The notes below the pieces were generated by a model. That model saw nothing but the letters and a program-made list of their open reading frames with translations. It had not been told where the DNA came from and did not search any database. A program made the position numbers and the translations under genes. 64,000 nt of DNA from an uncultured delta proteobacterium. Lineage in GTDB: Bacteria; Myxococcota; Myxococcia; Myxococcales; Myxococcaceae. Below are positions 6,278 to 60,826 of this stretch, piece by piece. Every line of letters begins with the position of its first letter. Position 1 is the first letter of the stretch. The stretch covers positions 838,216 to 902,215 of the forward strand of contig CAVSWU010000003.1 in NCBI GenBank assembly GCA_963731795.1, read 5' to 3'.

Positions 6278-7578
6278 CACCGGGACTCCTTGATCTGACC
6301 GTCCGAAAACACGAGCCGGCCGCCGACCCACGTCTGTGCGACGCGGCCCTTGAGCAATCGGCCATTGAAGGGGGTATTCCGACTCTTGGAGAAGAACCGC
6401 TCCGCGTCCACCGCCCACTCCACCCCCGGGTCGACGAGCGTGATGTCCGCCGCAGCCCCAGCCGCCAGGTGACCGCCCGGCAAGCCGAATGCCCTCGCGG
6501 GCCCGTCCGTGAGCAACTCCACCGCCTTGAGCGGGCTCAGCACGCCCTCGTGCACCAGGGCCAGCGACAGGCCGAGCGCCGTCTCCAGCCCCACCACGCC
6601 GTTGATGCCCTTCTCGAACTCCACCTGCTTGTCGAGCACGCCGTGCGGAGCGTGGTCCGTCGCGATGGCGTCAATCGTGCCATCGGCCAGGGCCTCGCGG
6701 AGCGCCTCCACGTCGCGGCGCAGGCGCAGCGGCGGGTTCATCTTGGCGTGGGTGTCGTACTGGCCCACGGCCGTGTCATCGAGCGAGAAGTGATGCGGGG
6801 TGGCCTCGGCGGTGACGTGCAGGCCGCGCTTCTTCGCCTCGCGCACCAGGCGCACGCTGCCCTCGCAGGAGATGTGGGCGATGTGCAGGCGCCCGCCCGT
6901 CTCCTCCAGCAGCACCAGATCCCGAGCCACCATGGCCACCTCGGCCGAGGGCGGGATGGGCAGCAGCCCGAGCCGCGTGGCGGTAGGCCCCTCCGTCATC
7001 GCGCCCTTGCCGGACAGCGTGAGGTCCTCCTCGTGGACCATGACGGGGATGCCGAAGAGCGTGGCGTACTGGAGCGCGCGCCGCATCAGGGCGGCGTTCA
7101 TCACGGGGCGGCCGTCGTCGGTGATGCAGACGCAGCCGGCGGAGATCAGCTCGCCCATCTCGGCCAGCTCCTCGCCCTTGAGGCCCTTGGTGATGGCCCC
7201 CGCGGGGTAGACGTGGCAGAGCCCCGCGGCCCGGGCGCGCGACAGCACCAGCTCCGTCACGAGCGCGCTGTCGTTGACCACCTTGGTGTTGGGCATGGCC
7301 ACCACCGCGGTGAAGCCCCCCGCCACCGCCGAGCGGCACCCGGTGAGGATGGTCTCCTTCCCCTCCTCGCCCGGCTCGCGCAGGTGCACGTGCAGATCGA
7401 TGAAGCCCGGCAGCACCCAGCGCCCCTGGGCCTCCACCACCTCGGCCCCGGAGACCTGGAGCGGCGCTTCGGACACCTGCGCCACCTTGCCGTCTCGCAC
7501 GAGCACGTCACGCACACCGTCAACACCGCTGCGCGGATCGATCACCCGACCGCGGCGGAAGAGCACCGGGCCGCTCAC
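6277..7578 (-). CDS. pyrC: Dihydroorotase.
   Basis: [15 protein letters not shown]...[20 protein letters not shown]...DHAPH... The GTG start overlaps the pyrB stop by 4 nt (GTGA). Confidence 0.85.
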
Positions 7579-8465
7579 GAGCACACCTCCAGGATGGCCC
7601 GGCGCACGGCGACCCCATTGGCCACCTGCTCCAGGATGACGCTGCGAGCCCCGTCCGCCACGGCGGGGGCCAGCTCCACGCCCCGGTTGATGGGACCGGG
7701 GTGCATGACCAGCGCCCCGGGCTTCATCCGCTCGGCCCGCGCCTGGGTGAGCCCGAAGAGCCGGGAGAACTCGCGCGTGGAGGGGAAGAAGGACTCCGTC
7801 TGCCGCTCGAGCTGGAGCCGCAGGCACATCACCGCGTCCGCCTGGGGCAGCACCGCATCCAGCCTCGTCGTCACCTCGGCGCCCATCTCCTTCAGCCCCG
7901 CGGGCAGCAGCGTGGGCGGGCCGCACACCACCACCCGAGCCCCGAGCGCCGTCAGGCACAGGATGTTCGAGCGCGCCACGCGGCTGTGGAGGATGTCTCC
8001 GATGATGAGCACCGTGCGGCCATCCAGCGGCCCCCAGTGCCGCCGCAGCGTGAAGGCGTCCAGCAGCGCCTGCGAGGGGTGCTCGTGGGTGCCATCCCCG
8101 GCGTTGATGACGGCGCAGCGCACGTGCCGGGCCACCAGGTGCGGAGCGCCCGAGGAGCGGTGCCGGATGATGAGCGCCACCGGGCCCGTGGCCTCGATGT
8201 TGCGCACCGTGTCCAGCAGCGTCTCTCCCTTGGACACCGAGGAGCCCTGAGCCGTCCAGTTGAGCACCTGGGCGCCCAGCGACTTGGCGGCGATCTCGAA
8301 GGAGGTGCGGGTGCGGGTGGAGTCCTCGAAGAAGAGGTTGGCCACCACCTTGCCTTGAAGCACCGAGGTGCTCGCCGAGCCTCCTGGCAGATGAGCCTCG
8401 GCCCGATCGAGCAGCGTCTCGATCTCCTCTCGCCGCCAGCCATCAATTCCGAGCAGGTGTCTCAT
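7575..8465 (-). CDS. pyrB: Aspartate carbamoyltransferase catalytic subunit.
   Basis: MRHLLGIDGWRREEIETLLD...FFEDSTRTRTSFE...HPSQALLD...VMHPGP. These are ATCase motifs (STRTR, HPxQ, HPGP). Confidence 0.88.
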   Translation of the reverse strand: MRHLLGIDGWRREEIETLLDRAEAHLPGGSASTSVLQGKVVANLFFEDSTRTRTSFEIAAKSLGAQVLNWTAQGSSVSKGETLLDTVRNIEATGPVALIIRHRSSGAPHLVARHVRCAVINAGDGTHEHPSQALLDAFTLRRHWGPLDGRTVLIIGDILHSRVARSNILCLTALGARVVVCGPPTLLPAGLKEMGAEVTTRLDAVLPQADAVMCLRLQLERQTESFFPSTREFSRLFGLTQARAERMKPGALVMHPGPINRGVELAPAVADGARSVILEQVANGVAVRRAILEVCS

Positions 8466-9761: not shown

Positions 9762-11572
9762 CTACTCCTCCGTCTTCAGGACCGCCAGGAAGGCTTCCTG
9801 AGGGATCTCCACCGAGCCCACCTGCTTCATACGCTTCTTGCCCTCTTTCTGCTTCTCCAGCAGCTTGCGCTTACGGCTGATGTCGCCACCGTAGCACTTG
9901 GCGAGCACGTTCTTGCGCATGGCGGAGATCGTCTCTCGGGCGATGATCTTCGCGCCGATGGCCGCCTGGATGGCCACCTCGTACATCTGCTTGGGGATGA
10001 CTTCCTTGAGCTTCTCGCACACCTCGCGGCCGCGCTGGTAGGCGCGCTCGCGGTGGACGATGACGCTCAGGGCATCCACCGGCTCGCCGTTGATGAGGAT
10101 GTCCAGCCTGGCCAGCTCCGCCTCCACGTAGCCGGCCAGCTCGTAGTCGAGGCTGGCGTAGCCGCGCGACACGCTCTTGAGCTTGTCGAAGAAGTCGAAC
10201 ACCACCTCGGCCAGCGGCATCTCGTACGTCACCTGCACGCGCTGGCCGCTGGAGCCCAGGTACTTCATGTCCTTCTGCACGCCGCGCCGGTCCTGGCACA
10301 GCTTGAGGATGGCGCCCAGGTGATCGTTGGGCACGTGGATGTGGCAGGTGAGGATGGGCTCCTCGAACTTCTCGATGTTCTGCACTGGCGGCAGCTTGGC
10401 TGGGTTGTCGATGAGGAGCGTCTCGCCCTTGCTGGTGGTGATGCGGTACACCACCGAGGGCGCCGTGGTGATGAGGTTGAGGTTGTACTCGCGCTCCAGG
10501 CGCTCCTGGACGATCTCCATGTGCAGCAGGCCCAGGTAGCCGCAGCGGAACCCGAAGCCCAGCGCCGTGGAGGACTCGGGCTCGTAGGTGAAGGCCGAGT
10601 CGTTGAGCTTGAGCTTGGCCAGCGCGTCGCGCAGGCCCTCGTACTCGGCGGAGTCCACCGGGAAGATGCCGCTGAACACCATGGGCTTCACTTCCTTGAA
10701 GCCCGGGAAGGGAGCGTCCGTGGGGCGCGCCTCCTCGGTGACGGTGTCACCCACCTTGGCGTCCTGCAGCTCCTTGACGTTGGCCACCAGCACGCCCACC
10801 TCGCCGGCCATCAGCTGCTGCACGGGCCGCGAGAAGGGGCTGAACACGCCCAGCTCCTGCACCTCGAAGACCTTGTTGTTGCTCCACAGCTTGATCTTCT
10901 GCTTGAGCTTGAGCGTGCCCTCCAGCACGCGCACCAGCGTCACGACGCCCCGGTAGTTGTCGTACCAGCTGTCGAAGATGAGGGCCTTGAGCGGCGCGCT
11001 CGGCTCACCCCTGGGCGGCGGAATCCGTTCGACCACCGCCTCGAGGATGTCGTGGATGCCGATGCCCTCCTTGGCGGAGGCCGGCACAGCCACGGACGCG
11101 TCGATGCCGATCACGTCCTCGATCTCCGATCGGGTGCGCGCGACGTCCGCGCTCGGCAGGTCGATCTTGTTGATGACCGGGATGATCTCCAGGTTGTGGT
11201 CCAGCGCCATGTAGACGTTGGCCAGCGTCTGCGCCTCGACGCCCTGGCTGGCGTCCACCACGAGCAGGCGCCCTCGCACGCGGCCAGCGAGCGGCTGACC
11301 TCGTAGGCGAAGTCCACATGCCCCGGCGTGTCGATGAGGTTCAGGACGTACTGCTTGCCGTCCTTGGCCGTGTAGTTCATCCGCACGGACTGGGCCTTGA
11401 TGGTGATGCCCCGCTCACGCTCGATGTCCATGTTGTCCAGGAACTGAGCCTGGGCCTCACGCTTGGTCAGCGTCCCCGTCTTCTCGAGGAGGCGGTCCGC
11501 CAGCGTCGACTTCCCGTGGTCGATGTGGGCGATGATGCAGAAGTTGCGAATGTGGGCGTTCTCAGCCGGCAT
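9762..11572 (-). CDS. lepA: Elongation factor 4 (LepA), split by a 1-nt deletion near 11263-11268.
   Basis: N-terminal ORF: [22 protein letters not shown]...[26 protein letters not shown] second frame continues [22 protein letters not shown]...; the expected GCGCTG reads GCCTG. Confidence 0.85.
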
Positions 11573-11712: not shown

Positions 11713-12658
11713 CTAGCCGGACGCCCGCGCCGGCTCGCGCGCCTTGCCGCGGAAGTACTCCACCGTCTTGCGCAGCCCGTCCGCGAGCCCCACGCTCGGC
11801 TCCCAGCCCAGCACCTTCCGGGCCAGCCCCGGATCGATGCAGGAGCGCCGCTGCTCGCCCGGCTTGCCCGGAGCGTGGATCACCGGCTGCTTCGAGCCCG
11901 CCGCCTCGGCCAGCAGCGCGAAGAGGCGGTTGATGTCCGTCTCCACGCCGGTGCCGATGTTGATCGCGCCCACGGAGTCCTTCTCGAAGGCCAGCACGTT
12001 CGCCCGAGCCACGTCCGGCCCGAAGACAAAGTCCCGCGTCTGGCCCGCCATCTCCGAAGATGGTGCACTCCCGGCTGGAGACCAGGCGCTGGCTGAAGAT
12101 GGCCACCACGCCGGCCTCGCCGTGAGGGTTCTGCCGAGGGCCATAGACGTTGGCGTAGCGCAGTGCGACGTACTGCAGGCCATACTGGGCGCGGTAGTAG
12201 CCCAGGTAGAGCTCGCCCGCCGCCTTGGAGACACCATACGGCGACACCGGCCGCGTGGGATGGGACTCGGGCGCGGGGAAGACGTCCTGCTCGCCGTAGA
12301 TGGCGCCACCCGTGGAGCTGAAGATGACCTTCTTCACCCCGGCGACCCGCGCGGCCTCGAGCAGGTTGAGCAGGCCCAGGATGTTCGCGTCCGCGTCGAA
12401 GCGCGGATCCTCCACGCTGCGCCGCACGTCCATCTGCGCGGCCAGGTGACAGAGCACGTGCGGGCGCTCGGAGCGGATGAGCTCCGCGGCCTCGGGGCTG
12501 CGGATGTCCAGCACCGCCAGCCGCACGCGCGGATCCAGGTTCTCCCGCTTGCCACTCGACAGGTTGTCGAGGGCCACCACCTCGTGCCCCGCACGCAGGA
12601 ACTCGTCGCACACGTGCGATCCGATGAAGCCCGCTCCTCCCGTCACCAACACTTTCAC
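11713..12658 (-). CDS. NAD-dependent epimerase/dehydratase (UDP-glucose 4-epimerase-like), frameshifted near 12043-12047.
   Basis: MKVLVTGGAGFIGSHVCDEFL...SPYGVSKAAGE...YANVYGPRQ... in one frame. The C-terminus QTRDFVFGPDVARANVLAF...GWEPSVGLADGLRKTVEYF is in another frame, with one extra C in gggcc. Confidence 0.8.
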
Positions 12659-20084: not shown

Positions 20085-22214
20085 TCAAGGGTGCGCGATG
20101 AGCAGCAGGGTCGGGGCGCGCGTCATCACACAGTTCAGCGCCTGCCGGAGCGTCTCGGGGTCCAGCGCGGCGAAGCTCTCATCCAGGATGACCAGGTCCG
20201 CCCCCTGGAGAATGGTCCGCGCCACATAGATGCGGCTCTTCTCCCCATGCGAGAGCTGCCAGCCGGTCTCCCCCACCATCTGCATCATGCCTCCCGGCAT
20301 CCGGTCGAGCAGCGCCCCCAGGCCCAGCTCCCGGCAGATCGCCTCTGCTTCCTCGAGATCCACGGTCCGGGGAGGCCACTGCCGGCCCAGCAGCAGGTTG
20401 AAGGCGATCGGTGCGGAGAGGATGTGGTTCTCATGGAACTGGGGCGCGGACGCCACGTGGCGGCGCCAGCCCACGAGCCCCAGCGTGGGCTTGTCCAGCC
20501 CGTGCAACAACAGCAGCCCCTGGCTGGGTGCACGCAGGCCCGCGAGAATGGAGCCAAGCGTGGACTTGCCACTCCCGGACGCGCCCTCGAGCAGGAGCCG
20601 ATCGCCGGCGCGAACTTCCAGGCTGCAGTCGCGCAGCACGGGGCTCGGTCGCCCGGCATGCTGGAACGTGAGCGACTGCGCATCGAGAACGGTCTCCTCC
20701 GGCACACTTCCCTGGCGCGGAGAGGCCGCGAGCGCCGCCGTGGTCGTCACCTCAGCGCGCGCCGTCGCTCGCTGGAGTGGAGCCACCTGCTCCCAAGCCG
20801 CGGCGGCGCCCAGGAGGTCCGGTAACCCCGCGACGAGCAGTCGGAAGGCACGAAAGGCCAGCAGGAGCCCCCCGAGCGCAAGCGCGAGCCCAACCGGTTG
20901 AGTCCTCCCCTCGACGAACGCGTGCCCGAGCGTGGCGACGGCTACCACCAACCAGCCGCGCGGCACCAGGACCACCATCCAGGCGTACATCCGGTCCAGC
21001 CTCCGAGACGCCTCGAGGTATTGCTCAAGCGCGAGGTCATCGGCCCGGTACCAGCGCTCCTGGGCTTCCTGAGCCACGCGGGTCCGGTGACCCGCCATCT
21101 CCTCCACCAGCCCATGGGTCATCGTCATGCGGATGCGTGTCCACAGCTGGCGCTGCCGCATGTAGCGCACCGACAGCAGGACGGTCAGTCCCACCCAGGC
21201 GAGCAACCCCAGGTTCTGCGCCCACCCGTACGGTCCGAGGCCGAGCACGACTGCCGCCATGCCGAGCTCGACCATCGCCACCACACAGACGAGCCCGCCC
21301 CCGACGGTGAGCGTCTCGATGGCATCGGCCTCGATGACCCGGCCGAGCAACCGCCCTGCCCCCTCATGTCGTATCTCGCCCGGATCGAGCAGCAGTGCCC
21401 CGAACAGCAGGCGCTGCTTGAGCGCGCTGCCCAGCTCGATTCCCATGAGCCCCGCGAGCCAGCTGGAGGCAATCCGGAACGGCAATGTACAGATGAGCAG
21501 CAATCCCCAAGCGACCAGCCAGGACAGCTCGAGGTTCCCTGACAGCACGCTCCGTCCCACCACCCACCAGGAGAACAGGAGCAGGGCGTACTCGGCGGCG
21601 CGCGCGAGCAGGAGCACCGCCAGATGACGGCCCAGCCGCGCCAGGGAGAGCTGCCCTAGCAGTCCGGCGCCGGGTTGCCGGCGGAGCAACCAGCACCCCC
21701 GCAGCACGGTGCCCCCGAGTTGATCGCGGAGGATTGCGCGGCGAGAGCGGGCACGCTGGCGCTCAGGAACGTCGGCGCTCTCGAGCACGACGTCGACCGC
21801 GGGCAGCAGCGGCGCCTCGACAATCTCGCAGAAGGCCGAGCGTACCACCTCCACGTCAACCTCCACCCTCTCATCCTCCGTGGTGCGGAGATGGACCCTG
21901 CCGCGGCGGCTCCCCACGAGCACGAGGAAGCGCGGCTCGGGGCCGAAGAGCCGCACAATGGAGGGCCCGGCATGGCGCAGGAGTGCCTCCACATCCTTGT
22001 AGCGAGCCTCTGCGTACTCGGCCTCGAGGCCCAACCAGCTCGCGGCGCCCTCCATCCAGCGCGCCAGCGCAAGGCCCCCGGGCTGAACAAGGTCAGCGGC
22101 GGGAGCAGGCAGCCCCGTGGTACGCACGGGAAGCCCTGCCGCTCGCACGAGGACCTCTATCGCCTCACCCAGGCGGTGGAGGGGCCAGCACGCCTCCGGC
22201 GGAAGGACGCTCAT
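20085..22214 (-). CDS. ABC transporter with fused permease and ATPase, and a ~180-aa N-terminal accessory domain (NHLM/bacteriocin-exporter partner type).
   Basis: Six predicted TM helices followed by LLLEGASGSGKSTLGSILAGL...LSHGEKSRIYVARTIL...LVILDESFAALD (Walker A, signature, Walker B). Its ATG overlaps the upstream gene's stop (ATGA). Confidence 0.8.
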   Translation of the reverse strand: MSVLPPEACWPLHRLGEAIEVLVRAAGLPVRTTGLPAPAADLVQPGGLALARWMEGAASWLGLEAEYAEARYKDVEALLRHAGPSIVRLFGPEPRFLVLVGSRRGRVHLRTTEDERVEVDVEVVRSAFCEIVEAPLLPAVDVVLESADVPERQRARSRRAILRDQLGGTVLRGCWLLRRQPGAGLLGQLSLARLGRHLAVLLLARAAEYALLLFSWWVVGRSVLSGNLELSWLVAWGLLLICTLPFRIASSWLAGLMGIELGSALKQRLLFGALLLDPGEIRHEGAGRLLGRVIEADAIETLTVGGGLVCVVAMVELGMAAVVLGLGPYGWAQNLGLLAWVGLTVLLSVRYMRQRQLWTRIRMTMTHGLVEEMAGHRTRVAQEAQERWYRADDLALEQYLEASRRLDRMYAWMVVLVPRGWLVVAVATLGHAFVEGRTQPVGLALALGGLLLAFRAFRLLVAGLPDLLGAAAAWEQVAPLQRATARAEVTTTAALAASPRQGSVPEETVLDAQSLTFQHAGRPSPVLRDCSLEVRAGDRLLLEGASGSGKSTLGSILAGLRAPSQGLLLLHGLDKPTLGLVGWRRHVASAPQFHENHILSAPIAFNLLLGRQWPPRTVDLEEAEAICRELGLGALLDRMPGGMMQMVGETGWQLSHGEKSRIYVARTILQGADLVILDESFAALDPETLRQALNCVMTRAPTLLLIAHP

Positions 22215-24896
22215 GAGGTGCGCTCCTTCTCAATAGGCCGGCCGTCCACCATCCGCAGCCGGCGCCATGCGGCACTCGCCCAGAGCTCCTGGCGGACCTG
22301 CGCCTCGGTCTCCAGCAGGGCGCGATAGCGGGAGCCCTCGCGGGCCGCGAGCACCGTGGGAGGCCCATCCTCGATGATGCGCCCCTCGTCCATCACGACG
22401 ACGCGATCGAACCCGCGCGTCTCCGCGAGATCGTGGGTGATGCAGAGCATCGTCACCCCTGCCCACGCCTCGCGGCTCCGCGCGAGCAGCACGCGGCGAA
22501 GATCGCGGTCGAGTCCGCGGAAGGGCTCATCCAGGACCGCGAGCCGCACCCCCGGGCGCAGCAGTGCGCGGCCCAACCGCACGCGCTGCCCTTCTCCTCC
22601 GGAGACGAGCGCACCGCCCTCGCCCAGCGACGTCTGCAGCCCGTCCGGCATGGCCTCGAGCACCCGCTGCAGCTCGACAGCCTTGATGACACGCCCCACC
22701 CCCTTCAGGCCCTCGGAGCCATAGGTGAGGTTGTCGATGAACGAGCTGTTCCAGAGCTGCACCGCGGGCTCCACCCAGGCCGTCCGCCGCCGTAGCGCCT
22801 CGAGGCGGCCGGCGCTCAGCGGACGCCCATCCATCAGGACCCCTCCCTCACTGGCTCGATGCCAGCCGAGCACCAGGCCCACCAGCGTCGACTTGCCGGC
22901 TCCGGAGGCGCCCACGACGGCCACGTGCTCGCCGGGAGCAATCTCGAGCTCCACGCCGCTCAAGAGCGTATTCCCGGCCGCGACGACACTGACGCCCTCG
23001 AAGCGCAGGGCCACAGGCGCGTCCTCGGCATGGGGGAGCTCCTCGCCCCGCGCCTCTTCATCCGGCGCGCGAGGCTCTTCCAGCGCGCCAAGAGGCTCGA
23101 ACAACCGCAGGACGATGTTGCGGTGCCGCGGGAGCTGCCTGGCCAGGAGGGCAAGCTCCTGCCCGAGGGCCGGGATGTTCAGCGCCCAGAACAGGAGGAG
23201 CAGCGTGCCCGACATCCCCTCCATGTGGGGCAGGGCTCCGACGAAGAGCCACGTGGCGAAGCCCAGGGCGATGACCGTGGTGAGGACATCCGTCATCACC
23301 CCCGTCCGCAGCAGCGACTTCGCGGCCCTCGCCCATTCGACCAGCAAGCCCTCGTGCTCCCGCCGTACCATCCGCTCTGCGCCGTGCGTGCGGATGGCCG
23401 TCAGCCCGAGCAGCGCATCCAGGTAGAAGCGAGTGAGTCCTCCCGCATGGCTGCGGACACGCAGATCGCGCTCGATGAACGGCTTCTGGAGGACCAGGGG
23501 AACGAGCACGGCGGCGACCGCGGCGGCAATGGCGCGCGGAGCGCTGCTGGGATCGAGCCAGATGATGCCTGTCGCGCTCAGCACCATCTCCATGACCTGG
23601 CGCAAGAACCTGCCCGCGAGCTCCGGGGAGCTGGCGCAGCTGATGGCTGTTGTGGCAGCGCTCGGCCATGTCGGACATCGGGCGGCTCTGGAGGTAGCGA
23701 TCTCCAAGCCGGGGAATCTTCTGCACGAAGGCGATGCGCAGGCGTGCCTCGAGGTGGCGCCCGAGCCACTGGGTGCCCAGCACGAGGGGCACCTCGAGAA
23801 GGAAGAGGGCCATGAGGAAGGCGAGCAGCGCGGCGAGCGTACCGAGGCGCTGCTCGAACAGCACCAGCTTCGCTCCCACGTCGAGCATGCTCTTGAACAG
23901 GATGGCCAGGACTGCCATGGCGGCCGCCGCAACGGCGAAGCCGGCCGCGAGCATGGAGATGGTGAGGACACCACTCTGGCGAACCAGGCGCAGCAGCTCC
24001 CGGCCAGGACGCGCCTGCGGCTCGCGCAGCGCGGCCACCAACTCCGGAGAGCGCGGCTCCGGGACAGGCACGCCCTCGCCAGCCGCCTTCCGCGTGCCAC
24101 GGATGGTGATGAGGACCGCCCCGCGCAGCGACAAGCTCTCTCCCAGCTCCGGTGAGGGCGGCGCTGGCCGGACACACCAGAACATCTCGGGGATCACCTG
24201 GGTCTCGTCCCCCTCCCCCGCGGCCTCCCGGGCCGTGGACACGAGGTGCTCGAGCAGCCGAGCCGTCCTGGGACCTCGCGGCATGCCCCTCGATGCGGCG
24301 ATGGACTCGACCATCCGCACCGCGGCGTCGAGCCTCGCCGTCCCCCTCCACCCGGGCTCCGCCATGGCCGCGTCGATCAGCCTCGACCCTTCGTCCGCGA
24401 GGCCAACGCGGCGGCACCGCTGCCGGAGAACCCGCAGGAACGCGGGCGCCGCCGCGAAGGCCGTCCAGCTCGGCACCTGGATGAGCGAGGTGTGGACATA
24501 GACATCCTTGAGGAGTTCCTGGCAGGTGGTCCAGCGGCGGCCCGATGCCGGATCCATGAGCTGGATGAGAGGCCCCAGTCGCTTCCAGAGCACGACGAAG
24601 TGCGGGGCTCCGCTGGGCAGGCGCACGACAAGGATTGCGGGGATCGCCTCGGCCTCGTGGAGCAGGAGGTGATCGACCGGAGTCATGAACTGCTCGGCAT
24701 CCAGCCCGAGCTCGAGCGCGACCTCCTCGATGGTGTCGATGGATGTCCCATCGACGTCTGTCTGACAGGCCTCGCGCAGCCGGCCGTAGCTCACGTGAAC
24801 GCCCCACCCCTCGAGCAGGCACTTCAGCGACGCCGGGCCGCAATCCATGGCCGAAGTCTGTACTACCTCTGGAGCGAGCACGTTTCGGCGCATCAT
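22211..24896 (-). CDS. Peptidase-C39-domain ABC transporter (bacteriocin/RiPP-type maturation-secretion protein), frameshifted by 1 nt near 23623-23628.
   Basis: N-terminus: VVQTSAMDCGPASLKCLLEGWGVHVSYGRL...HFVVLWKR (C39 Cys/His). TM region, then VVGASGAGKSTLVGLV...LVSGGEGQRVRLGRAL...LAVLDEPFRGLD. The two halves are in different frames, joined at ...SHQLRQLP|ELAGRFLRQVMEM across a cccc run. Confidence 0.8.
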
Positions 24897-24902
24897 GGGT
24901 CC

Positions 24903-26081
24903 TCAGGCTCCTGTGCCACCACTCGCCTGACGCCTCTCGAGCATCCGGCCAGCGGCACGAAGGACGAGTTCCGCGGGCGAGGCTCGCTCCACCTGCACCT
25001 CCACTGAACCTGGCAGTCCATGCTGCAGGGGGATGGCAGGCGGCGCATGCCCCACGATGCGCAGCTCCACGCGCACCTTGCCATCGCGGACCTCGCTGCC
25101 GACACTCTCCACGAAGAGCTGCAGCATTCCGTACTCGGCCCATGGAAATCCGTCCAAGCGCAGCCGCGCCTGCTGACCAGGCCGAATGCGCCCGAGCGCC
25201 ACGTCCGGCGGAAAATCGGCGGTGACCTGCAGCCCTCCGGGTGGAACGACTGCGCTCAGCCGGAGCCCCTTGGTCACGACGGAGCCAGGCTGGAGCACCA
25301 CAATCTCCCCCAGCTTGCCGCTCGCGGGAGCCCGGATGCTCCGCAGCTCGATGGCGTGCTGCAGCGCCTCGATGTCCGCCTGCGCCTGCGCCTGCTGCCC
25401 GCGAAGCAGCTCGAGCTCACGTGCAAGCTTGGCGAGGTCCGTCTCCAGCTCCTCTCGCTTGAGGCGGTTCTCCGCGTCGATGCGGCCGACCCCCTCCTTC
25501 CAGGCCTTGGCATCGGCGCCCTGCTGCCGTTCCTCGGCGGTCATCCTGTCGCGCTCGGCCACCGAGATCATCCCCTTCTCCTGGAGGATGGCGGAGCGCT
25601 CTGCCTCGGACTGGGCGAGCCTGGCCCGCGCCGTGGCGCCCTGCTGGCGAGCGCGCGCCTCCGCGAGCTGCGTTCGCGCGACCCGCTCGTGCTCAGCCAG
25701 GGTCCGTGTCTGTGCCTCGACTTCCCGCTCGAGCAGTCCGTGCTGCGATGCCAGGCTCTCCACGAGCTTCCGCTTGGCGGCCAGCTCAATCTCGAGCGCC
25801 GCAGTATCGAGCCGGACGAGCACCTCCCCTGCCTCGACCTGCCTGTCGAGCGCCAGGGCGGATGACACCACCTTGCCGTCGACCTCCGACTCGATGGGGT
25901 GCACCGCCCCCCCCACCTCGACCCTCGCATCCGAACTCACCGCATAGACGGAGATGCGGAAGATGAGAAACCACGCGCCCCATACACCGCACAGCAGCAC
26001 GGCAATGACGAGCCACCGGCGGTAGCGGTGCGCCCCGTCGGCGGCGAGGGAGCGCAGGGAGCGATGGAATGGTATCGACAT
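24903..26081 (-). CDS. HlyD-family membrane fusion / secretion protein.
   Basis: N-terminal TM (WLVIAVLLCGVWGAWFLIF), a long coiled-coil (LEIELAAKRKLVESLASQHGLLEREVEAQ...), and a C-terminal β-barrel region (IRAPASGKLGEIVVLQPGSVV). Confidence 0.8.
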   Translation of the reverse strand: MSIPFHRSLRSLAADGAHRYRRWLVIAVLLCGVWGAWFLIFRISVYAVSSDARVEVGGAVHPIESEVDGKVVSSALALDRQVEAGEVLVRLDTAALEIELAAKRKLVESLASQHGLLEREVEAQTRTLAEHERVARTQLAEARARQQGATARARLAQSEAERSAILQEKGMISVAERDRMTAEERQQGADAKAWKEGVGRIDAENRLKREELETDLAKLARELELLRGQQAQAQADIEALQHAIELRSIRAPASGKLGEIVVLQPGSVVTKGLRLSAVVPPGGLQVTADFPPDVALGRIRPGQQARLRLDGFPWAEYGMLQLFVESVGSEVRDGKVRVELRIVGHAPPAIPLQHGLPGSVEVQVERASPAELVLRAAGRMLERRQASGGTGA

Positions 26082-26090
26082 ACCCGCAGC

Positions 26091-27647
26091 TCAAGAAGCA
26101 CGCTGCTCCGCGGAGCGCGCCGGGGTCATGGACGGTGGAGGAACCTTCGGCAACACCCGGAAGAAGCGCTGCTCGCCCCGCCGGTAGTACGCCAGCAGGT
26201 CATCCCAGGCGCGGTAGTTGAGCTCCAGGACCAGGAGCATGTAGCCCATGGCCAGGCGCTGGACCGCGGGAGAGACCGTCTTGACCTCCGCCATCATCAA
26301 CCGCGGGATGCTGGTGTGATGATACTTCTCGTTGAGGAGGATGTGCTTGTCGAGCGACATGAACTCCCCCACGAGTCGCTTGTACGGTTCGTCCAGCGGG
26401 GAGTCGGCACCGAGCACGCCTTCGGTGATGAAGATGGATACGATATAGGCGACAGGGTCCATCATCCCCAGTTGCGTGAAGACATCCACGTAGGCGTAGT
26501 GCAGCGGCAGCGGCTGAGCGCCCTTGATCTGCTCCTCGGACAGGCCCAGCTCGCGGCAACTCTGGTACTCGAGCGCGTCATGCCCGACCTCCTCCGCGTA
26601 GTACCGGAACGCCTTCGTCCGCAGAGAGGCATTCAGGCGCCTGGGCAGGAGCGTGGCGACAATCTCGGGGAAGCGGGTCGTCACGAGGTAGTCCTGCAGG
26701 TAGCGCCCGTGGACCAGGATGAGATCCGCATCCGGGCCGGAGAGTGCCTTCAGGTACTCGGGCTCGCCGACCCGGATTGACAGCTCACGGCCGACCCGCT
26801 CGATCTCCAGCATGAACTCGATGCCCGTCATGCACTCCCTGGGCTCGTACGGCGCCTCGCAAAAGCGCCGGGACCTGGAAGCATCCGTGCCGCTGACCAG
26901 ACACTCCGCGAGCCCGTTGAGATGGCGCTGCGCATCCACGGAGGAGTACGCGCCGCCTGCGAGCTCGCAGAGCAGCTCATTCAGGCCAGGCTGCGCTCCC
27001 GTCTCTGCCTCGAGCCGGCTCTGGAGCAGCAGCAGCGCCTGCGTGCAGCACACCAGCGACAAGGGCGCGAGCCCCCGCTGGTAGAGCCCCTGCACCGCAG
27101 CGATCTGCTGATAGAAGTTGCCCAGGCGCAGGATCTCCGGAGCGCTGAGCTGTCGGTGCTCCGTCGGCGGCAGCGGCTTCTGCAGGGGCAGCGTCCGCGA
27201 GAACTCCGACGTCAGCCCCGTGTAATGCGCACCGAGCGTGCGGACATTCGCGAGGAGCGCCTGCCGCCGTCCCGGTTCCACCTCCTGCAGCACCGCCTCG
27301 ACACAGGCGGCAATCGAGTCACTGAGCCGGGTCACCTCGGCATCCCGGCGGCTCTTGACCTCGTGCGCGGCATCCCGCAACAGGCCCAGGTAGTCCATCG
27401 TCGTGAGCAGCTCGCGCCAGTCAGCGTCCGGGGGAGCGGACAGGACCTCCTTCCAGGTGGGCGACCCGGGCTTCCGCAGCGCATCCAACCGGGTGACGAT
27501 GTCCTGAGGCGTCGTGGAGCTTCCGTGCTCGATCACGTACTCATTGGCCTCAGCCGTGACACACACCTCGCCGGTCGCCTCATCAATCCGCACGCCTGAG
27601 ATTGCAAGATACGGAGACTCATACTTCGTGATGCTCCAGGCTTCCAT
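26091..27647 (-). CDS. RRE (PqqD-like) domain fused to a heme-oxygenase-like (PF14518/iron-containing redox enzyme family) domain. This is the large paralog, 518 aa.
   Basis: N-terminus: ISGVRIDEATGEVCVTAEANEYVIEHGSSTTPQDIVTRLDAL...LLTTMDYLGLL (PqqD-like). C-terminus: AFRYYAEEVGHDALEYQSCRELG...EKYHHTSI, with E/H motifs shared with the two downstream paralogs. Confidence 0.6.
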   Translation of the reverse strand: MEAWSITKYESPYLAISGVRIDEATGEVCVTAEANEYVIEHGSSTTPQDIVTRLDALRKPGSPTWKEVLSAPPDADWRELLTTMDYLGLLRDAAHEVKSRRDAEVTRLSDSIAACVEAVLQEVEPGRRQALLANVRTLGAHYTGLTSEFSRTLPLQKPLPPTEHRQLSAPEILRLGNFYQQIAAVQGLYQRGLAPLSLVCCTQALLLLQSRLEAETGAQPGLNELLCELAGGAYSSVDAQRHLNGLAECLVSGTDASRSRRFCEAPYEPRECMTGIEFMLEIERVGRELSIRVGEPEYLKALSGPDADLILVHGRYLQDYLVTTRFPEIVATLLPRRLNASLRTKAFRYYAEEVGHDALEYQSCRELGLSEEQIKGAQPLPLHYAYVDVFTQLGMMDPVAYIVSIFITEGVLGADSPLDEPYKRLVGEFMSLDKHILLNEKYHHTSIPRLMMAEVKTVSPAVQRLAMGYMLLVLELNYRAWDDLLAYYRRGEQRFFRVLPKVPPPSMTPARSAEQRAS

Positions 27648-27674
27648 GGCACTGACTCCTCAAGCAAAGCATGC

Positions 27675-28670
27675 TCAGTCGAACACGCGGGGGATACGGC
27701 TCTCCGGCCTGCCGTAGTAATCGACGATCTGCCCATCCATGATGACCAGGGACTCGACGAGGATGCCCATGTGGAGCATGACGATCCGTTGCTCCTCGTC
27801 CGAGACGCTCGGGACCTCGGCGAACAGGACTTCGCTGATCTCCTCGTGGTCGCCGTCCTTGTTGATGAAGGCATGGTCGAGGATGGGCTTGTGGAATGCC
27901 TCCGGCAGTCCAACCTCCACGCATCGCTTCTTGAATGCCTCGTGGAACTCCTCGCTCGTCTCCTCGAAGAGGAAGAGGGCCGCCTTGAACGAGAGCGGAT
28001 GCTGGCGGGCGTACACCCCTAGCGAGGAGCAGAGGGTGAACGTCATGGGCAGTGGCACCAGCCGGTCCAGCTCCTTGCGCCCGATGCCCACGGCGGCCAG
28101 CGAGCGCTCGATGAGGCGGTCATGGTGGAGCTCGGACACGAAGAAGTCCTGCAAGGTGCTCAGCGTCTTCCTCGTGTCATGGTGCGACAGCGCGGGGGCC
28201 AGCAGCCCCGGGCACATGCGAACGATGTGGTAGTACTCGAGCACGTAGCCGATGAGCTGCTCGCGGCCCAGGCTGCCATCCACCAGGCCCTGGTAGAACG
28301 AGCGGGCGCTGTACTTGCGCTTCGCGCGCTCCATGAAGCGCTGCAGCTCCCGGTAGAACTGCGCCCCGCGCTTGGCCTTCCGCGGCTGGGTGGACGTCTC
28401 GGTGAGCAGGCCCAGGCGATCGAGATCCCGGCAGATCCGGCCGACCTCCCTGGAGAGCGCCGGCAGCCTCGTCGAGAGCTCCTCCAGGGAGTTTCCTCCA
28501 CGCTGAAGCATGTCGAGCAGGCGCACCGAGTCCGTGCGCGTCTCCGGCGCCAGCTCGAGCTCGTACTCCTCGTCGCGGTACTGGAGGACGACGATACCGT
28601 CCGTGCTCGTCCGCATCGTGACCGCCTCACGCAGACGCGGCTGTTGGAAGAAATTAGTCGTTACAGTCAT
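27675..28670 (-). CDS. RRE (PqqD-like) domain fused to a heme-oxygenase-like (PF14518-type) putative di-iron oxidase, paralog B.
   Basis: N-terminus: GIVVLQYRDEEYELELAPETRTDSVRLLDMLQRGGNSLEELSTRL...ICRDLDRLGLL. C-terminus: LEYYHIVRMCPG...FVSELHHDRLIERSLAAVGI...FEETSEEFHEAF...ILDHAFINKDGDHEE. Confidence 0.65.
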   Translation of the reverse strand: MTVTTNFFQQPRLREAVTMRTSTDGIVVLQYRDEEYELELAPETRTDSVRLLDMLQRGGNSLEELSTRLPALSREVGRICRDLDRLGLLTETSTQPRKAKRGAQFYRELQRFMERAKRKYSARSFYQGLVDGSLGREQLIGYVLEYYHIVRMCPGLLAPALSHHDTRKTLSTLQDFFVSELHHDRLIERSLAAVGIGRKELDRLVPLPMTFTLCSSLGVYARQHPLSFKAALFLFEETSEEFHEAFKKRCVEVGLPEAFHKPILDHAFINKDGDHEEISEVLFAEVPSVSDEEQRIVMLHMGILVESLVIMDGQIVDYYGRPESRIPRVFD

Positions 28671-28703
28671 GGTCGCCTCGAAGGCAGCAGCGCTGCCCCG
28701 GAA

Positions 28704-29696
28704 TCAGATGGCCGACAACCGGCGCACGAGCTCCTCCGCACCCGTCTTGGGGGAGTAGAACTTCCAGATGGCGGTGTAGAAGTCGTCGTACATCTCGACG
28801 AACAGCCGCATCTCCCGCCGCAGCCGCGCCATGGTCTCATCATCCACGAAGGGGATCTCCGCGAAGAGGAGGCGTGTCAGGTTGCCGTGCTCTCCCTTGC
28901 GGTTGATCTCCGAGTGGTCACGCATCGGCTTGATGAACCCGGGGGGCAGCTGGGCCTTCTTGCAAGCCTCGATGAAGAGGTCCTCCTCGGGGTCCTTGCC
29001 CTCGAGCACCCCCAGCGTGGCGAAGAAGAAGAGGGGATCGCTGGCCGCCCAGTACGAGAGCGCATTGCACAGCGCCAGCGTCTCGGGCAGGGGCATCATG
29101 TCCTGCACGTCGGCGCGGCTGAGCCCGAGCGCGAAGATCGCCTTGATGATGATCTCGTCGTGGCCGTACTCGCTGCAGTAGAACTCGTTCATCAGCTGGC
29201 GGACCCGGGTGTTCGGGATGTAGGGCAACACCGGGGAATCAAAGAGGCTCTCGCGGAACAAGAAGTGGTAGTTCTCGATGGCAAGGCCATAGAAGGCCGT
29301 CCTGGGACAGCCGACCGGGTCCTCCAGCAGGTGGGTCCAGAAGATGTTGCGGTTGATGCTCTTCTCCATCAACGCGTTGGCGAGGTCCTCGAGCTCGAGC
29401 AGCGCCTGGGAGCCCGTGCGAAGCTCGAGGGTGCTCGCATCGTCGAGCAGTCGGCAGCGCTCCAGGTCCTCCAGCAGGCTCCCGAAGCGCTGCCGCTGGT
29501 CCGTGTCCAGCCCTCGCTGAATATCGCGGACCGTGCGTCTCCCATCCAGCTGCTTGAGAAAGCCATGGATGTCTTCAGTGGACGAGCCCTCGGGCTCCAG
29601 GGCGAACTCCACCCCATCCCGGGCCAGCGAAAGCTCGGCGTCTGTGATTGAGACCTCGCCAATCAGACGAGGGCGAGAGTCAGGTGACTCGAACAT
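28704..29696 (-). CDS. RRE (PqqD-like) domain fused to a heme-oxygenase-like (PF14518-type) putative di-iron oxidase, paralog C.
   Basis: Start at MFESPDSRPRLIGEVSITDAELSLARDGVEFALEPEGSSTEDIHGFLKQLDGRRTVRDIQ (PqqD-like). Then AIENYHFLFRES...EFYCSEYGHDEIIIKAIFALGL...MRDHSEINRKGEHGN. Confidence 0.65.
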   Translation of the reverse strand: MFESPDSRPRLIGEVSITDAELSLARDGVEFALEPEGSSTEDIHGFLKQLDGRRTVRDIQRGLDTDQRQRFGSLLEDLERCRLLDDASTLELRTGSQALLELEDLANALMEKSINRNIFWTHLLEDPVGCPRTAFYGLAIENYHFLFRESLFDSPVLPYIPNTRVRQLMNEFYCSEYGHDEIIIKAIFALGLSRADVQDMMPLPETLALCNALSYWAASDPLFFFATLGVLEGKDPEEDLFIEACKKAQLPPGFIKPMRDHSEINRKGEHGNLTRLLFAEIPFVDDETMARLRREMRLFVEMYDDFYTAIWKFYSPKTGAEELVRRLSAI

Positions 29697-29776
29697 GGTG
29701 TCGCTCTCCCTTGATGTTGAACTCGAGTGGCCGCGGTGGATGGGTGACACAGTCCATACACGTCTGGCGACCCGCC

Positions 29777-29802
29777 CCGGAGCAGTGAGCTCACCGCTCC
29801 GG
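29777..29802 (-). promoter_or_regulatory. Strong RNA hairpin in the 128-nt spacer between the peptide gene and the first modification-enzyme gene, an attenuator or processing site candidate.
   Basis: The mRNA strand CCGGAGCGGUGAGCUCACUGCUCCGG forms an 11-bp stem (one G-U pair) with an AGCU loop. It is GC-rich with no U-tract. Confidence 0.5.
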
Positions 29803-29823
29803 GACGCTTTCCACCTGGGACAA

Positions 29824-29991
29824 CTACAGGTGCACTGCGATGAGAGCACCCGCCATCACGCCCGTCTTCAGGCGGATCTTCAGAGCGCGATGCTCCGTCA
29901 CGACCTCCTGTTTGAGCTCGGTCGCGCTGCTCTCCTTCCTGGCCTCGGTTTCGGTCGCCATCGTTTCCTCCTGGTCTGCGTTCTTCTGCAT
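29824..29991 (-). CDS. Candidate RiPP precursor peptide (55 aa; 45 aa if translation starts at the second ATG, 29961).
   Basis: MQKNADQEETMATETEARKESSATELKQEVVTEHRALKIRLKTGVMAGALIAVHL. Both ATGs have Shine-Dalgarno sequences (GGTGGAGG, AGGAGG). The N-terminus is charged and helical, leader-like. The C-terminus is hydrophobic, with Gly/Ala and one His. It is co-directional with the RRE enzymes and the exporter. Confidence 0.5.
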   Translation of the reverse strand: MQKNADQEETMATETEARKESSATELKQEVVTEHRALKIRLKTGVMAGALIAVHL

Positions 29992-30196: not shown

Positions 30197-31363
30197 ATGA
30201 GACAACCCACCATTGGAATACTGGCCGGCATGGGGCCGAGGTCCACGGCCCCCTTCATCGACCTGGTGATAACAGAATGCCAACGTCAGTACGGCGCGAC
30301 AGATGACATCGACTTTCCGAAGATGATGGTCTGCTCGCTGCCGACCCCGTTCTACCCGGAGCGCCCCACCGACCATGCCGCGATGGAAGCCACCCTGCGC
30401 ACAGGGCTCCAGGACCTGGCGCGGACCGGGGCTGACTTCATCGCCATCCCCTGCAACACGGCACACATCTACTACCCGCAGCTGAAGGACAGCATCGATA
30501 TCCCGCTGTTGAACATGGTCAGGCTGGCGCTCGAGGCCATTCCCGAGTCCGCGAGGTCCATCGCGCTCATCGCGGCGCGCCCCACGGTCGAGGCTGGCAT
30601 CTACCAGGAGGGCCTCCGGGAACGCGGCTGTCAGGTAGCCGATGTGGACTGGCAGCGAGAGGTCGATCAGCTGATCGGTGCGACCAGGACCTTGAGGGAT
30701 CCTGCCCTGTTCCGCTCACGCTGGGGCGAGCTGGCACGACGGGCGAAGCTGGCCGGGGCAGACACGCTCCTCATTGCCTGCATGGACCTGAGCGCGGTCA
30801 GGCTCCACCTGGACACCGAGCTGCGGGTCCTGGATGCGGGGCAATGCCTGGCTCAGGAGATCGTTGCCCAGTGGCTGTCACGCCGCGACCGCGACGCGGA
30901 GGATCCGGCACGTCACGAACGTCATCGCGGGCCCTACAGGGTGACCTCGGATCCAAAGCAACTCGATATCGCGGCGATACACGCCTACCTCACCCGCTCC
31001 TACTGGGCCGAGGGAATCACGAGAGAGACAGTCGCGCAGTCGATCCAAGCTTCCCTGTGCTTCGGGCTCTTCGACAATGCTCGCCAGGTGGGCTTCGCGC
31101 GGGTCATCACGGATCATGCAACCTTTGCCTACCTGTGTGACGTCTACGTCCTCGAGGAGTACCGCGGGCAGGGCCTGGGGACGTGGCTGGTGAAGAGCGT
31201 CACCGAACACCCGGCGCTGACAAGGGTTCGCCGGTTCCTCCTGGCCACCCGGGATGCGCATGGGCTGTACTCGAAGTTCGGCTTCTCCCCCCTGCAGGCG
31301 GCCGGCCGGTTCATGGAGATCTTCCGGCCAGAGCTCTACAAGCCGGCACGTAGAAACCAATGA
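30197..31363 (+). CDS. Asp/Glu racemase-family domain fused to a C-terminal GNAT N-acetyltransferase domain.
   Basis: N-terminus: IGILAGMGPRSTAPFIDLV...IAIPCNTAHIYY...LLIACMDLS (the two Cys motifs of Asp/Glu racemases). C-terminus: VGFARVITDHATFAYLCDVYVLEEYRGQGLGTWLVKSV (GNAT Q/RxxGxG/A). Confidence 0.7.
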   Translation: MRQPTIGILAGMGPRSTAPFIDLVITECQRQYGATDDIDFPKMMVCSLPTPFYPERPTDHAAMEATLRTGLQDLARTGADFIAIPCNTAHIYYPQLKDSIDIPLLNMVRLALEAIPESARSIALIAARPTVEAGIYQEGLRERGCQVADVDWQREVDQLIGATRTLRDPALFRSRWGELARRAKLAGADTLLIACMDLSAVRLHLDTELRVLDAGQCLAQEIVAQWLSRRDRDAEDPARHERHRGPYRVTSDPKQLDIAAIHAYLTRSYWAEGITRETVAQSIQASLCFGLFDNARQVGFARVITDHATFAYLCDVYVLEEYRGQGLGTWLVKSVTEHPALTRVRRFLLATRDAHGLYSKFGFSPLQAAGRFMEIFRPELYKPARRNQ

Positions 31364-58766: not shown

Positions 58767-59195
58767 TCACCGTTCGTCGATGAACTCCGTCTTCAGCTGC
58801 GCGAAGACGCGATCCGCGATGCCCTTGTACCGCATCCGCTCGATGAGCGGCTGCAGATCTCCCTTGCACCGAGATGCGGCGCTTGAGCACCGCCTCCACC
58901 GGATCCAGGGTGCCCCTGCAGCAGCTCCTTCCATACCGAGTACGGGGCCCGGGCCACGTAGGCGGGCTCGAACTCGTCCAGGTCGTCCGGATCGTCCAGC
59001 ACCCGCAGCTTCTCGATGCCGGCCGTTCTTGGGGAGGATGTGGACGACGAAGGCCGTGGCCAGCTTGCCGGGCTCGGGGTCCACCACCGCGCCAAAGTCG
59101 CCCGTCCACCCCTGGCCCGCCGCCGCGGCCTCGTGGTCCGCGTTGGTAAGCCGCACGGCCTCCTCACACCACTCCTTGGATGGGAACTTCGGCAT
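58767..59195 (-). CDS. SCP2 sterol-carrier-like domain protein, interrupted by ~3 frameshifts.
   Basis: [57 protein letters not shown], then |GIEKLRVLDDPDDLDEFEPAYVARAPYSVWKELLQG, then |...DLQPLIERMRYKGIADRVFAQLKTEFIDER, in three different frames. Confidence 0.55.
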   Translation of the reverse strand: MPKFPSKEWCEEAVRLTNADHEAAAAGQGWTGDFGAVVDPEPGKLATAFVVHILPKNGRHREAAGAGRSGRPGRVRARLRGPGPVLGMEGAAAGAPWIRWRRCSSAASRCKGDLQPLIERMRYKGIADRVFAQLKTEFIDER

Positions 59196-60826
59196 CGCTT
59201 CTCCGGCTACCTGACGGCGGAACACCCGGGTGATGCTGGACAGGAGGCCGCCGCCACTCCTCGGGCTGCTCGGGGCTCGGTACCGGGGGCGGCTCCTTCG
59301 GGAGCGCCTCCTCGATGGCCTTCTTGAGCGCCTCGGGCGTGTCCCGAGTGGCCAGATCCACCTTCTTCATGGTGGCGCCGTCCTCCACCAGCACCTGGAG
59401 GAGGCACTCCTCGGTCAGCTTGAAGTCGATCTTCCGCCCGGCGAACGCCGCGGGCAGGCGCACCGTGCCCAGGTACTCGTTGTCCACGATCAGGTCGCTG
59501 TCGCCCTGGTAGATGTCCAGCTCGATGTGGGCCGAGCTCGCGGCGTTGGGGGTCGGCAGCCGGAAGCTCTTCACCAGCGGGATGAGCGAGTTCTTGTCGA
59601 TGATGCGCTTGACGCGGTTGTTGGGCAGCCCGTAGCCGATGGGCATGGACACCGCGTCCAGCAGCGTCACCGAGTCGAGGCTGCCCAGCGAGTCGCCCAG
59701 CAGCGCCGCGCCCAGGGCCACGCACTCGTCCGGGTGCACGCCCTTGCGCGGCGGCTTGCCGAAGTGCTCCTGGATCTTCTGCTGCACCAGCGGCATGCGG
59801 CTCTGACCGCCCACGAGGATGATCTCGTCGATCTCCGAGCGCTTGATGCCCTTCTCCTCGAGCACGCGGTCGCAGATCTCGAAGGTGCGGTTCACCAGGT
59901 CGCCCGTGAGCGCGTTGAGCACGTCTCGGGTGAGCGGGATGCGCAGGTCCACCGGCTTGCCCTTGCGCTCCTCGATGAAGGGCAGATCGATGAGGACGTT
60001 GAGGCGCAGGGTGAGATCGATCTTCGCGGCCTCGGCGGCGTTCTTGATGCGCTGCAGGGCGATGGGGCTCTGCGGTGAGATCGATCTTGTGCTCCTCGAG
60101 GAACTTCTCGAGGACGTAGTCGATCACCCGGTTGTCGAAGTCCACGCCGCCCAGGAAGGTGTCACCGCCGGTGGCGAGCACCTCGAAGACGTTGCCGGTG
60201 AGCTGGAGCACGGACACGTCGAAGGTGCCGCCGCCCAGATCGTACACGAGGATCTTCTGATCCAGGCCGCGGTTGAAGCCGTAGGCGAGCGCGGCGGCGG
60301 TGGGCTCGTTGACGATGCGCTTGACGTCGAAGCCGGCCAGGCGGCCCGCCTCCTTCACCGCGTTGCGCTGGTTGTCGTTGTAGTAGGCCGGGACGGAGAT
60401 GACGGCTTCCTGGATGGGCCCGCCGAGGAACTGCTCGGCGATGGTCTTCACCTGCCCGAGGATGAGGCTGGCCACGTGCGGCAGGGAGTACGTCTTGCCG
60501 CCCAGCACCACCGCCGCGTCCCCCTCCGGGCCCTCGACGATGTCGTAGTTGAAGTAGCCCTTGAGCTCCTCCACCACCTTGGAGTGGTACTTGCGCCCGA
60601 TGAGCCGCTTGGTGCCGTAGAGCGTGTTCTTCGGGTTGGTGACCATCTGGTCCTTGGCGACGCCGCCGACCAGGAGATCTCCCTTGCCCGAGAGCGCGAC
60701 CACGGACGGCAGGATCAGGTTGCCGCGGTCGGTGGGGACGATCTTCGGGATGCGGTTGCGCACCGACGCGACCAGCGTGTTGGTCGTGCCCAGGTCAATC
60801 CCGACGATGCGAGGTTTGTCCGCCAT
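59164..60826 (-). CDS. Hsp70-family chaperone (non-canonical DnaK/HscA-like), frameshifted near 60064-60067. The C-terminal frame is uncertain.
   Basis: [20 protein letters not shown]...[14 protein letters not shown]... KIDLT| then [19 protein letters not shown]...[22 protein letters not shown] in another frame, with one extra C in gagcccc. Confidence 0.8.

Follow-up and report, generated by a model that had tools for sequence, protein, structure and literature searches.

A probable tripartite peptide-processing and export module with one putatively active and one dead C39-type domain in a Sorangium-like genome, and the almost certainly artefactual frameshift that splits it

The subject of this study is a three-gene peptide exporter in a 64,000-nucleotide stretch of DNA (the window) from an uncultured delta proteobacterium whose nearest named relatives are Sorangium spp. 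(assembly GCA_963731795.1, contig CAVSWU010000003.1, positions 838,216 to 902,215 of the forward strand). The G+C content of the window is about 69% and one minus-strand operon (20085-29991) stands out in it by third-position GC. Within this operon lie the genes for a HlyD-family periplasmic adaptor or membrane fusion protein (24903-26081, 392 aa, with an N-terminal transmembrane helix; PF13437 HlyD_3, 1.3e-11), for an ATP-binding cassette (ABC) exporter with a C39 peptidase (22211-24896, 893 or 894 aa after removal of one base; Peptidase_C39 and ABC_tran), which is a half-transporter of the peptidase-containing ABC transporter (PCAT) type and is called the C39-ABC below, and for a second half-transporter, the partner ABC (20085-22214, 709 aa; ABC_tran and ABC_membrane). 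An earlier note on this DNA had described the same three genes, and its coordinates for them are correct; the ATG of the partner ABC overlaps the stop codon of the C39-ABC (ATGA). It is likely, in our judgement, that these genes make up an intact and functional PCAT-type tripartite processing and export module and that the frameshift in the C39-ABC is an artefact; the genes themselves are genuine, and the pump for cleaving and exporting peptides that they encode is probably functional.

In the sequence as given the C39-ABC is split between two reading frames, frame A running from 24896 to 23625 and frame B from 23623 to 22211. The junction lies at coding-strand ccccgg (23623-23628, minus strand), a CCCC run (23625-23628) followed by GG (23623-23624) in the context ctCCCCGGag (...cag ctc ccc gga gct cgc...). 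The earlier note had put one extra C here; the site is as it said, although a surplus G would fit as well as a surplus C, and either repair gives ...QLRQLPELAGRF.... Deletion of one base from ccccgg produces an 894-aa protein with both an ABC_tran and a PF03412 Peptidase_C39 match (65.6 bits, cut-off 22), covered over 99-100% of its length by thousands of homologues of 880-950 aa. In a DNA alignment the window has one base more than each of five intact orthologues (loci L083, L001, L002, L003 and L022), and the nearest homologue (P0001, 89% identity) has a junction, QLRQLPELAGRF, identical to that of the repaired protein. A contig from the Logan assembly of run ERR15459711, compared with the window through gene coordinates and lengths, encodes a partner ABC that is 100% identical and a C39-ABC that is intact at 893 aa. 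Its genes (55, 330, 331, 518, 392, 893 and 709 aa) are spaced base for base as in the window except in the C39-ABC interval, where the starts of the C39-ABC and the partner ABC are 2678 nt apart on the contig vs 2679 nt in the window. The dN/dS ratio against L083 is 0.231 upstream and 0.231 downstream of the shift, the C39-ABC has no other lesions and the six neighbouring cluster genes are all intact. A programmed frameshift was rejected as every orthologue uses a single frame. On these comparisons the extra base is almost certainly a one-base sequencing or assembly error, and we are highly confident that the organism itself has an intact C39-ABC.

Other genes in the window are split in the same way, as was found by tracking reading frames by third-position GC, followed by Pfam scans and then reading of the junctions. 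All of these lie on the minus strand: LepA near 11262 (GTP_EFTU profile positions 2-97 and 95-188 in separate ORFs; CCC to CC, −1), an Hsp70 gene near 60070 (profile positions 1-250 and 249-508 in separate ORFs; C4 run, +1), a UvrD-type helicase near 61255 (the final part of UvrD_C in another frame; CC, +1), an AMP-binding enzyme near 940 (profile positions 2-214 and 204-384 in separate ORFs; G5 run, +1) and an NAD-epimerase near 12045 (N- and C-terminal halves in different frames; +1). Counting the C39-ABC there are six indels in 64 kb (at least five others), mostly +1 and all at short G/C runs, and a density of this kind points to unpolished sequence rather than to selective decay of one cluster. 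It is very improbable, therefore, that the frameshift is real, the C39-ABC having lately become a pseudogene in a strain whose cluster is decaying or silent. The extra base does stand in the sequence as given, and homopolymer slippage is a common natural route to inactivation, but at least five more indels in G/C runs split conserved genes of the same window, LepA and Hsp70 among them, the contig with the identical partner ABC holds the gene intact and 1 nt shorter, and the lack of further lesions, the dN/dS of 0.23 on both sides and the six intact neighbours do not suit a decaying locus. The frameshift noted earlier thus holds for the sequence as given and not for the organism, and the inactive exporter in a decaying cluster, which the note would have drawn from a confirmed frameshift, is unsupported. 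In practice the cluster is best handled as an intact one, and as the assembly is indel-prone other 'pseudogenes' in the window are equally suspect. Some same-strand overlapping ORF pairs that had been suspected of frameshifts proved to be ordinary adjacent genes, namely E1-beta/E2, PGA_cap/Hsp20, and the pair formed by a sigma-54 activator and the gene beside it. At 58767-59366 (minus strand) the third-position GC frame switches near 59300, where the Hsp70 gene has its 3' end; this may be a seventh indel or a low-complexity C-terminal tail.

The repaired C39-ABC consists of a C39 domain (about residues 1-140), a helical insert (about residues 141-300) and then a transmembrane domain (TMD) and nucleotide-binding domain (NBD), with ABC_tran (PF00005) scoring 73.3 bits. 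Among 58 homologues Cys19, His99 and Asp115 are invariant and Gln13 is near-invariant, and all four are present in the window protein. Two features of a PCAT, a peptidase with the Gln/Cys/His/Asp set and an exporter TMD and NBD fused to it, are found. PCAT1 (4ry2) is matched over residues 353-864, that is, over the TMD and NBD (E 3e-44). The protein is about 160 residues longer than PCAT1, the family-specific insert lying between the peptidase and the membrane domain (23997-24476, minus strand, limits approximate); Pfam and NCBIfam scans of the insert at E<=10 gave no match. The NBD has the signature SGGE and is followed by an unusually long tail, with 69-133 residues beyond the H-loop.

The partner ABC begins with a domain of its own (residues 1-195; 21630-22214, minus strand) that matched nothing in Pfam or NCBIfam (E<=10) or among the Protein Data Bank (PDB) sequences. 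The earlier note had remarked on an N-terminal domain of about 180 residues here, which does exist and is not recognized by Pfam or NCBIfam, and had suggested that it was possibly a degenerate C39-like or substrate-binding domain; the first of these suggestions is now supported. A profile of this C39-like domain (CLD) built from 60 sequences aligns with its partner's C39 profile in hhalign at a probability of 92.9% (E 3.6e-7), and the alignment sets Arg95 of the window copy on the catalytic His of C39. In the His-equivalent column of the CLD the residues are R32/G10/H2 of 60. The Cys-equivalent column is also unconserved (A27/S11/C8/T6 of 60), with Cys9 in the window copy (alignment of its CWP motif with CGP). 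Because the domain aligns with the C39 profile, with its His column replaced and its Cys column unconserved, it is identified by these alignments as a catalytically dead C39-like domain. It should be noted that the phrase 'no catalytic Cys' used earlier is not literally right, given Cys9 at the equivalent position; in the family this position is not conserved and the His is replaced. Both ABC proteins retain Walker A, the Walker B Asp-Glu, the Q-loop and the H-loop His. In the signature of the partner ABC, however, SGG has given way to LS[H/Q]GE in 60/60 members (LSHGE in the window), and the protein stops one residue past the H-loop His, again in 60/60, where MsbA continues for 45 more; the window protein ends ...LLLIAHP followed by the stop codon (20085-20090, minus strand).

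A scan of one genome per species gave more than 580 confirmed loci, of which the 80 best were examined for gene order. The order HlyD, C39-ABC, partner ABC is held in about 70 of the 80, the adaptor preceding the C39-ABC in most of them, and syntenic loci occur in Acidobacteriota, Myxococcota, Chloroflexota, Planctomycetota, Verrucomicrobiota and Gammaproteobacteria. The 4-nt stop/start overlap of the window is shared by at least 31 of 67 loci. A search with the CLD profile returned 1,399 clusters at 50% identity, the full-length members being about 690-740 aa with the CLD at the N-terminus. Annotations in the source records are generic (e.g. 'ABC transporter ATP-binding protein'), and a literature search (subscription-only papers lay outside it) found no account of the module or of the leader motif described below. 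The export cassette is compact, very widespread and unnamed by any curated model.

At the upstream end of the operon is a precursor-like ORF of 55 aa, preceded by the Shine-Dalgarno sequence GGAGG (29824-29991, minus strand; MQKNADQEETMATETEARKESSATELKQEVVTEHRALKIRLKTGVMAG/ALIAVHL). A scan of this one adjacent ORF against NCBIfam and Pfam at E<=10 found no NHLP, Nif11 or other match. Its C-terminus is conserved in L083, L001, L002 and L022 as RA[LM][KR]IRLKTGVMAG[AP][LV][IV]AVHL, in the window as IRLKTGVMAG and then ALIAVHL, and IRLKTGVMAG fits a leader motif of the family: small ORFs adjoining the module in Acidobacteriota hold the related decapeptide MKVKTNVKAG. A regular expression derived from [ML]K[VI]K[TS]N[VIT]KAG gave 117 matches in the six-frame translation of 1.5 Mb of flanking DNA, whereas the reversed motif gave 0 and so did all 20 order-permuted motifs; 94% of the matches are on the strand of the exporter, and they lie at a median of 791 nt from the module. 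Their consensus reads M(−10)-K-V-K-T-N-V-K-A-G(−1), with a Met start in 73/107, a variable next residue and a median tail of 8 residues before the stop. The predicted cleavage site is directly behind Ala-Gly, and ALIAVHL would be what remains in this cluster.

At many loci the motif is found in tandem arrays of tiny ORFs, each consisting of MKVKTNVKAG and a 6-20-aa tail (L007:6650-8260 with about 16 copies, L025:19779-20425, L047:22230-22484, L016:7619-8484 and L014:8331-8694 among them; tails such as ...QSVWGA, ...SALWGS and ...PDDPILITGG, each followed by a stop). Elsewhere LKVK[ST]NVKAGG alternates with units of about 12 residues ending ...NHNQTxxR (L004:105-320 and 7527-7930, L039:1549-1840 and 7810-8170, L081:7821-8605), and such multi-core peptides suggest several cleavage sites per precursor. 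The MKVKTNVKAG peptides have no match in Pfam, NCBIfam or the literature.

Between the precursor and the exporter are three genes for heme-oxygenase-like (PF14518) proteins of 330 aa (28704-29696), 331 aa (27675-28670) and 518 aa (26091-27647), all on the minus strand and all identified with Pfam. A mechanism that would fit this gene content begins with the precursor, presumably modified first by the three heme-oxygenase-like proteins, from which the C39-ABC with its Gln/Cys/His/Asp set would then cut the Ala-Gly leader, between IRLKTGVMAG and ALIAVHL. The cargo would be pumped out by an exporter that is most likely one C39-ABC and one partner subunit, and the dead C39-like domain of the partner could dock the substrate or serve as a scaffold, as in HlyB. 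With the partner ATPase degenerate and truncated, one ATP site of the pair would be of the consensus type and the other degenerate. Through the HlyD-type adaptor the exporter would be joined to an outer-membrane channel whose gene lies outside the operon. The conserved gene pairing and the asymmetry of the two NBDs suggest a heterodimer of C39-ABC and partner rather than a homodimer of either, and the gene arrangement typical of degenerate heterodimers, with unlike half-transporters side by side and non-consensus motifs in the NBD of one, is what is found here.

Several points weigh against this mechanism or against the reading of the module as intact. The call of an artefact rests on assembled sequences and, for the Logan contig, on gene coordinates, and the operon has no gene for an outer-membrane factor. 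Of the 39 loci with full flanks, 16 gave no match to the leader regular expression. The family motif ends in Ala-Gly, which is outside the classical double-glycine pairs (Gly-Gly, Gly-Ala or Gly-Ser with Leu-12, Glu-8 and Leu-7; PMC6363468), and it is without the residues at −7, −8 and −12. With Walker A, Walker B, Q-loop and H-loop present in both ABC proteins, separate homodimers are also possible, the C39-ABC homodimer processing and exporting the peptide and the partner homodimer acting in immunity (self-protection efflux) or regulation. Separate immunity ABC transporters are often present in bacteriocin clusters. Moreover, the solved PCATs are homodimers (PMC6959990, PMC8794836). We nevertheless regard separate transporters as unlikely: from phylum to phylum the two genes stand strictly side by side in an unchanged order, often with the ATGA overlap; every member of the partner family has a non-canonical signature and an NBD without any of the segment past the H-loop, so that both sites of a partner homodimer would be degenerate; and the kept C39 fold suggests substrate handling.

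It is quite possible, although somewhat less likely than not, that the triad represents an undescribed phylum-spanning class of heterodimeric PCAT, with a live and a dead peptidase and one truncated ATPase, serving only a so far overlooked family of mini-precursors whose whole leader is MKVKTNVKAG and whose products are about 6-12 residues long. Under the same tentative proposal the products may include xxxWGx hexapeptides, Pro/Gly-rich peptides and NHNQT multi-core repeats, and the Sorangium-like product may be an ALIAVHL heptapeptide modified by the heme-oxygenase-like proteins. A heterodimer of live and dead peptidases, if real, would be a natural system for studying the role of the C39-like domain in transport. 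Should the 10-residue leader be the export signal, it would make it simple to search Acidobacteriota and Myxococcota for secreted peptides of very small size, and it would also be a minimal tag for heterologous secretion.

As to the surroundings of the module, heme-oxygenase-like genes accompany it only in the Sorangium-like loci L001, L002, L003, L022 and L083. The set of three PF14518 paralogues behind a 55-aa precursor with the conserved C-terminus ...IRLKTGVMAGALIAVHL (26091-29991, minus strand) is kept in several Sorangium genomes. The 518-aa protein has an N-terminal extension of about 300 aa, and the second PF14518 protein has a weak winged-helix match (PF24409, residues 51-119), a segment that might be a peptide-recognition element. 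A literature search on HDO RiPPs and PF14518 found no published characterization of such a trio beside a ribosomal precursor, and the sole published precedent found for such chemistry is the thioamitide case cited in an HDO review (PMC13108848). Divergent from the operon and upstream of the precursor is a fused Asp/Glu racemase-GNAT acetyltransferase gene (30197-31363, plus strand), and L083, the locus of the 89%-identical relative, has a GNAT gene at the same position; the racemase-GNAT gene may belong to the cluster, for instance in D-residue formation or self-protection. Downstream of the operon are housekeeping genes (CCA-adding enzyme, MnmA and IHF-beta).

Among known systems, the module shares its outline with the NHLM clusters, in which a HlyD-like protein, an ABC protein with a peptidase and an ABC protein without an active peptidase form a three-gene set (Haft et al., 2010; PMC2887384). 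This is the same triad, likewise tied to ribosomal peptide clusters, and the assignment to an NHLP/Nif11-type exporter made in the earlier note stands as far as architecture goes. It does not stand as membership, as the comparison with the three models proposed there put every score far under the equivalog cut-off: TIGR03794 for the adaptor (38.3 bits vs 156.2), TIGR03796 for the repaired 894-aa C39-ABC (215.5 vs 853.3) and TIGR03797 for the partner ABC (97.5 vs 709.4). That the module is nevertheless an NHLM member (TIGR03794/03796/03797), merely recruited to another kind of cluster, is highly unlikely. Apart from the shared gene set, TIGR03796 does rank first among the NCBIfam models for the C39-ABC, but the adaptor and the partner prefer other models (EmrA and HlyD subfamilies, themselves all under cut-off, for the adaptor; CydC, CydD and MsbA for the partner), the precursor has no NHLP or Nif11 match and the family has a 10-residue leader motif of its own, and the C39-ABC carries a 150-aa insert absent from typical NHLM and PCAT proteins of about 710 aa. 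Judged on these scores and motifs, the likeness to NHLM is one of architecture only.

With the transporters of the PCAT1, ComA and LahT type (AMS/PCAT) the C39-ABC has in common the papain-like C39 domain at the N-terminus, its Gln/Cys/His/Asp set, a TMD of the type-IV ABC exporter kind and an NBD; in PCATs the leader is cut at a small-residue pair in a step coupled to export, and Gram-negatives add a HlyD-type adaptor (PMC6363468). In contrast to these proteins, the C39-ABC is about 890 aa long rather than about 710-730, owing to the helical insert of about 150 aa, it is paired with a second, non-identical half-transporter, and its predicted signal, [ML]KVKTNVKAG, ends in Ala-Gly without Leu(−12)/Glu(−8)/Leu(−7). 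The partner ABC resembles the transporters of HlyB-type type 1 secretion systems (CLD; PDB 3zua) in having an N-terminal C39 fold without the catalytic dyad on an ABC exporter, but it scores only 83.4 bits vs a cut-off of 725.55 with TIGR01846, no RTX-type cargo is present here, the CLD-bearing ABC adjoins an active C39-ABC and its NBD is truncated past the H-loop. Heterodimeric ABC exporters with one degenerate ATP site are represented by TmrAB, TM287/288, BmrCD and TAP1/2, in which the usual change is Walker-B Glu to Asp. These share with the present pair the adjacent half-transporter genes and the restriction of non-canonical motifs to one subunit, whereas here the degeneracy takes the form of the LSHGE signature and a lost C-terminal NBD segment, and both subunits of the putative heterodimer have C39-type N-terminal domains.

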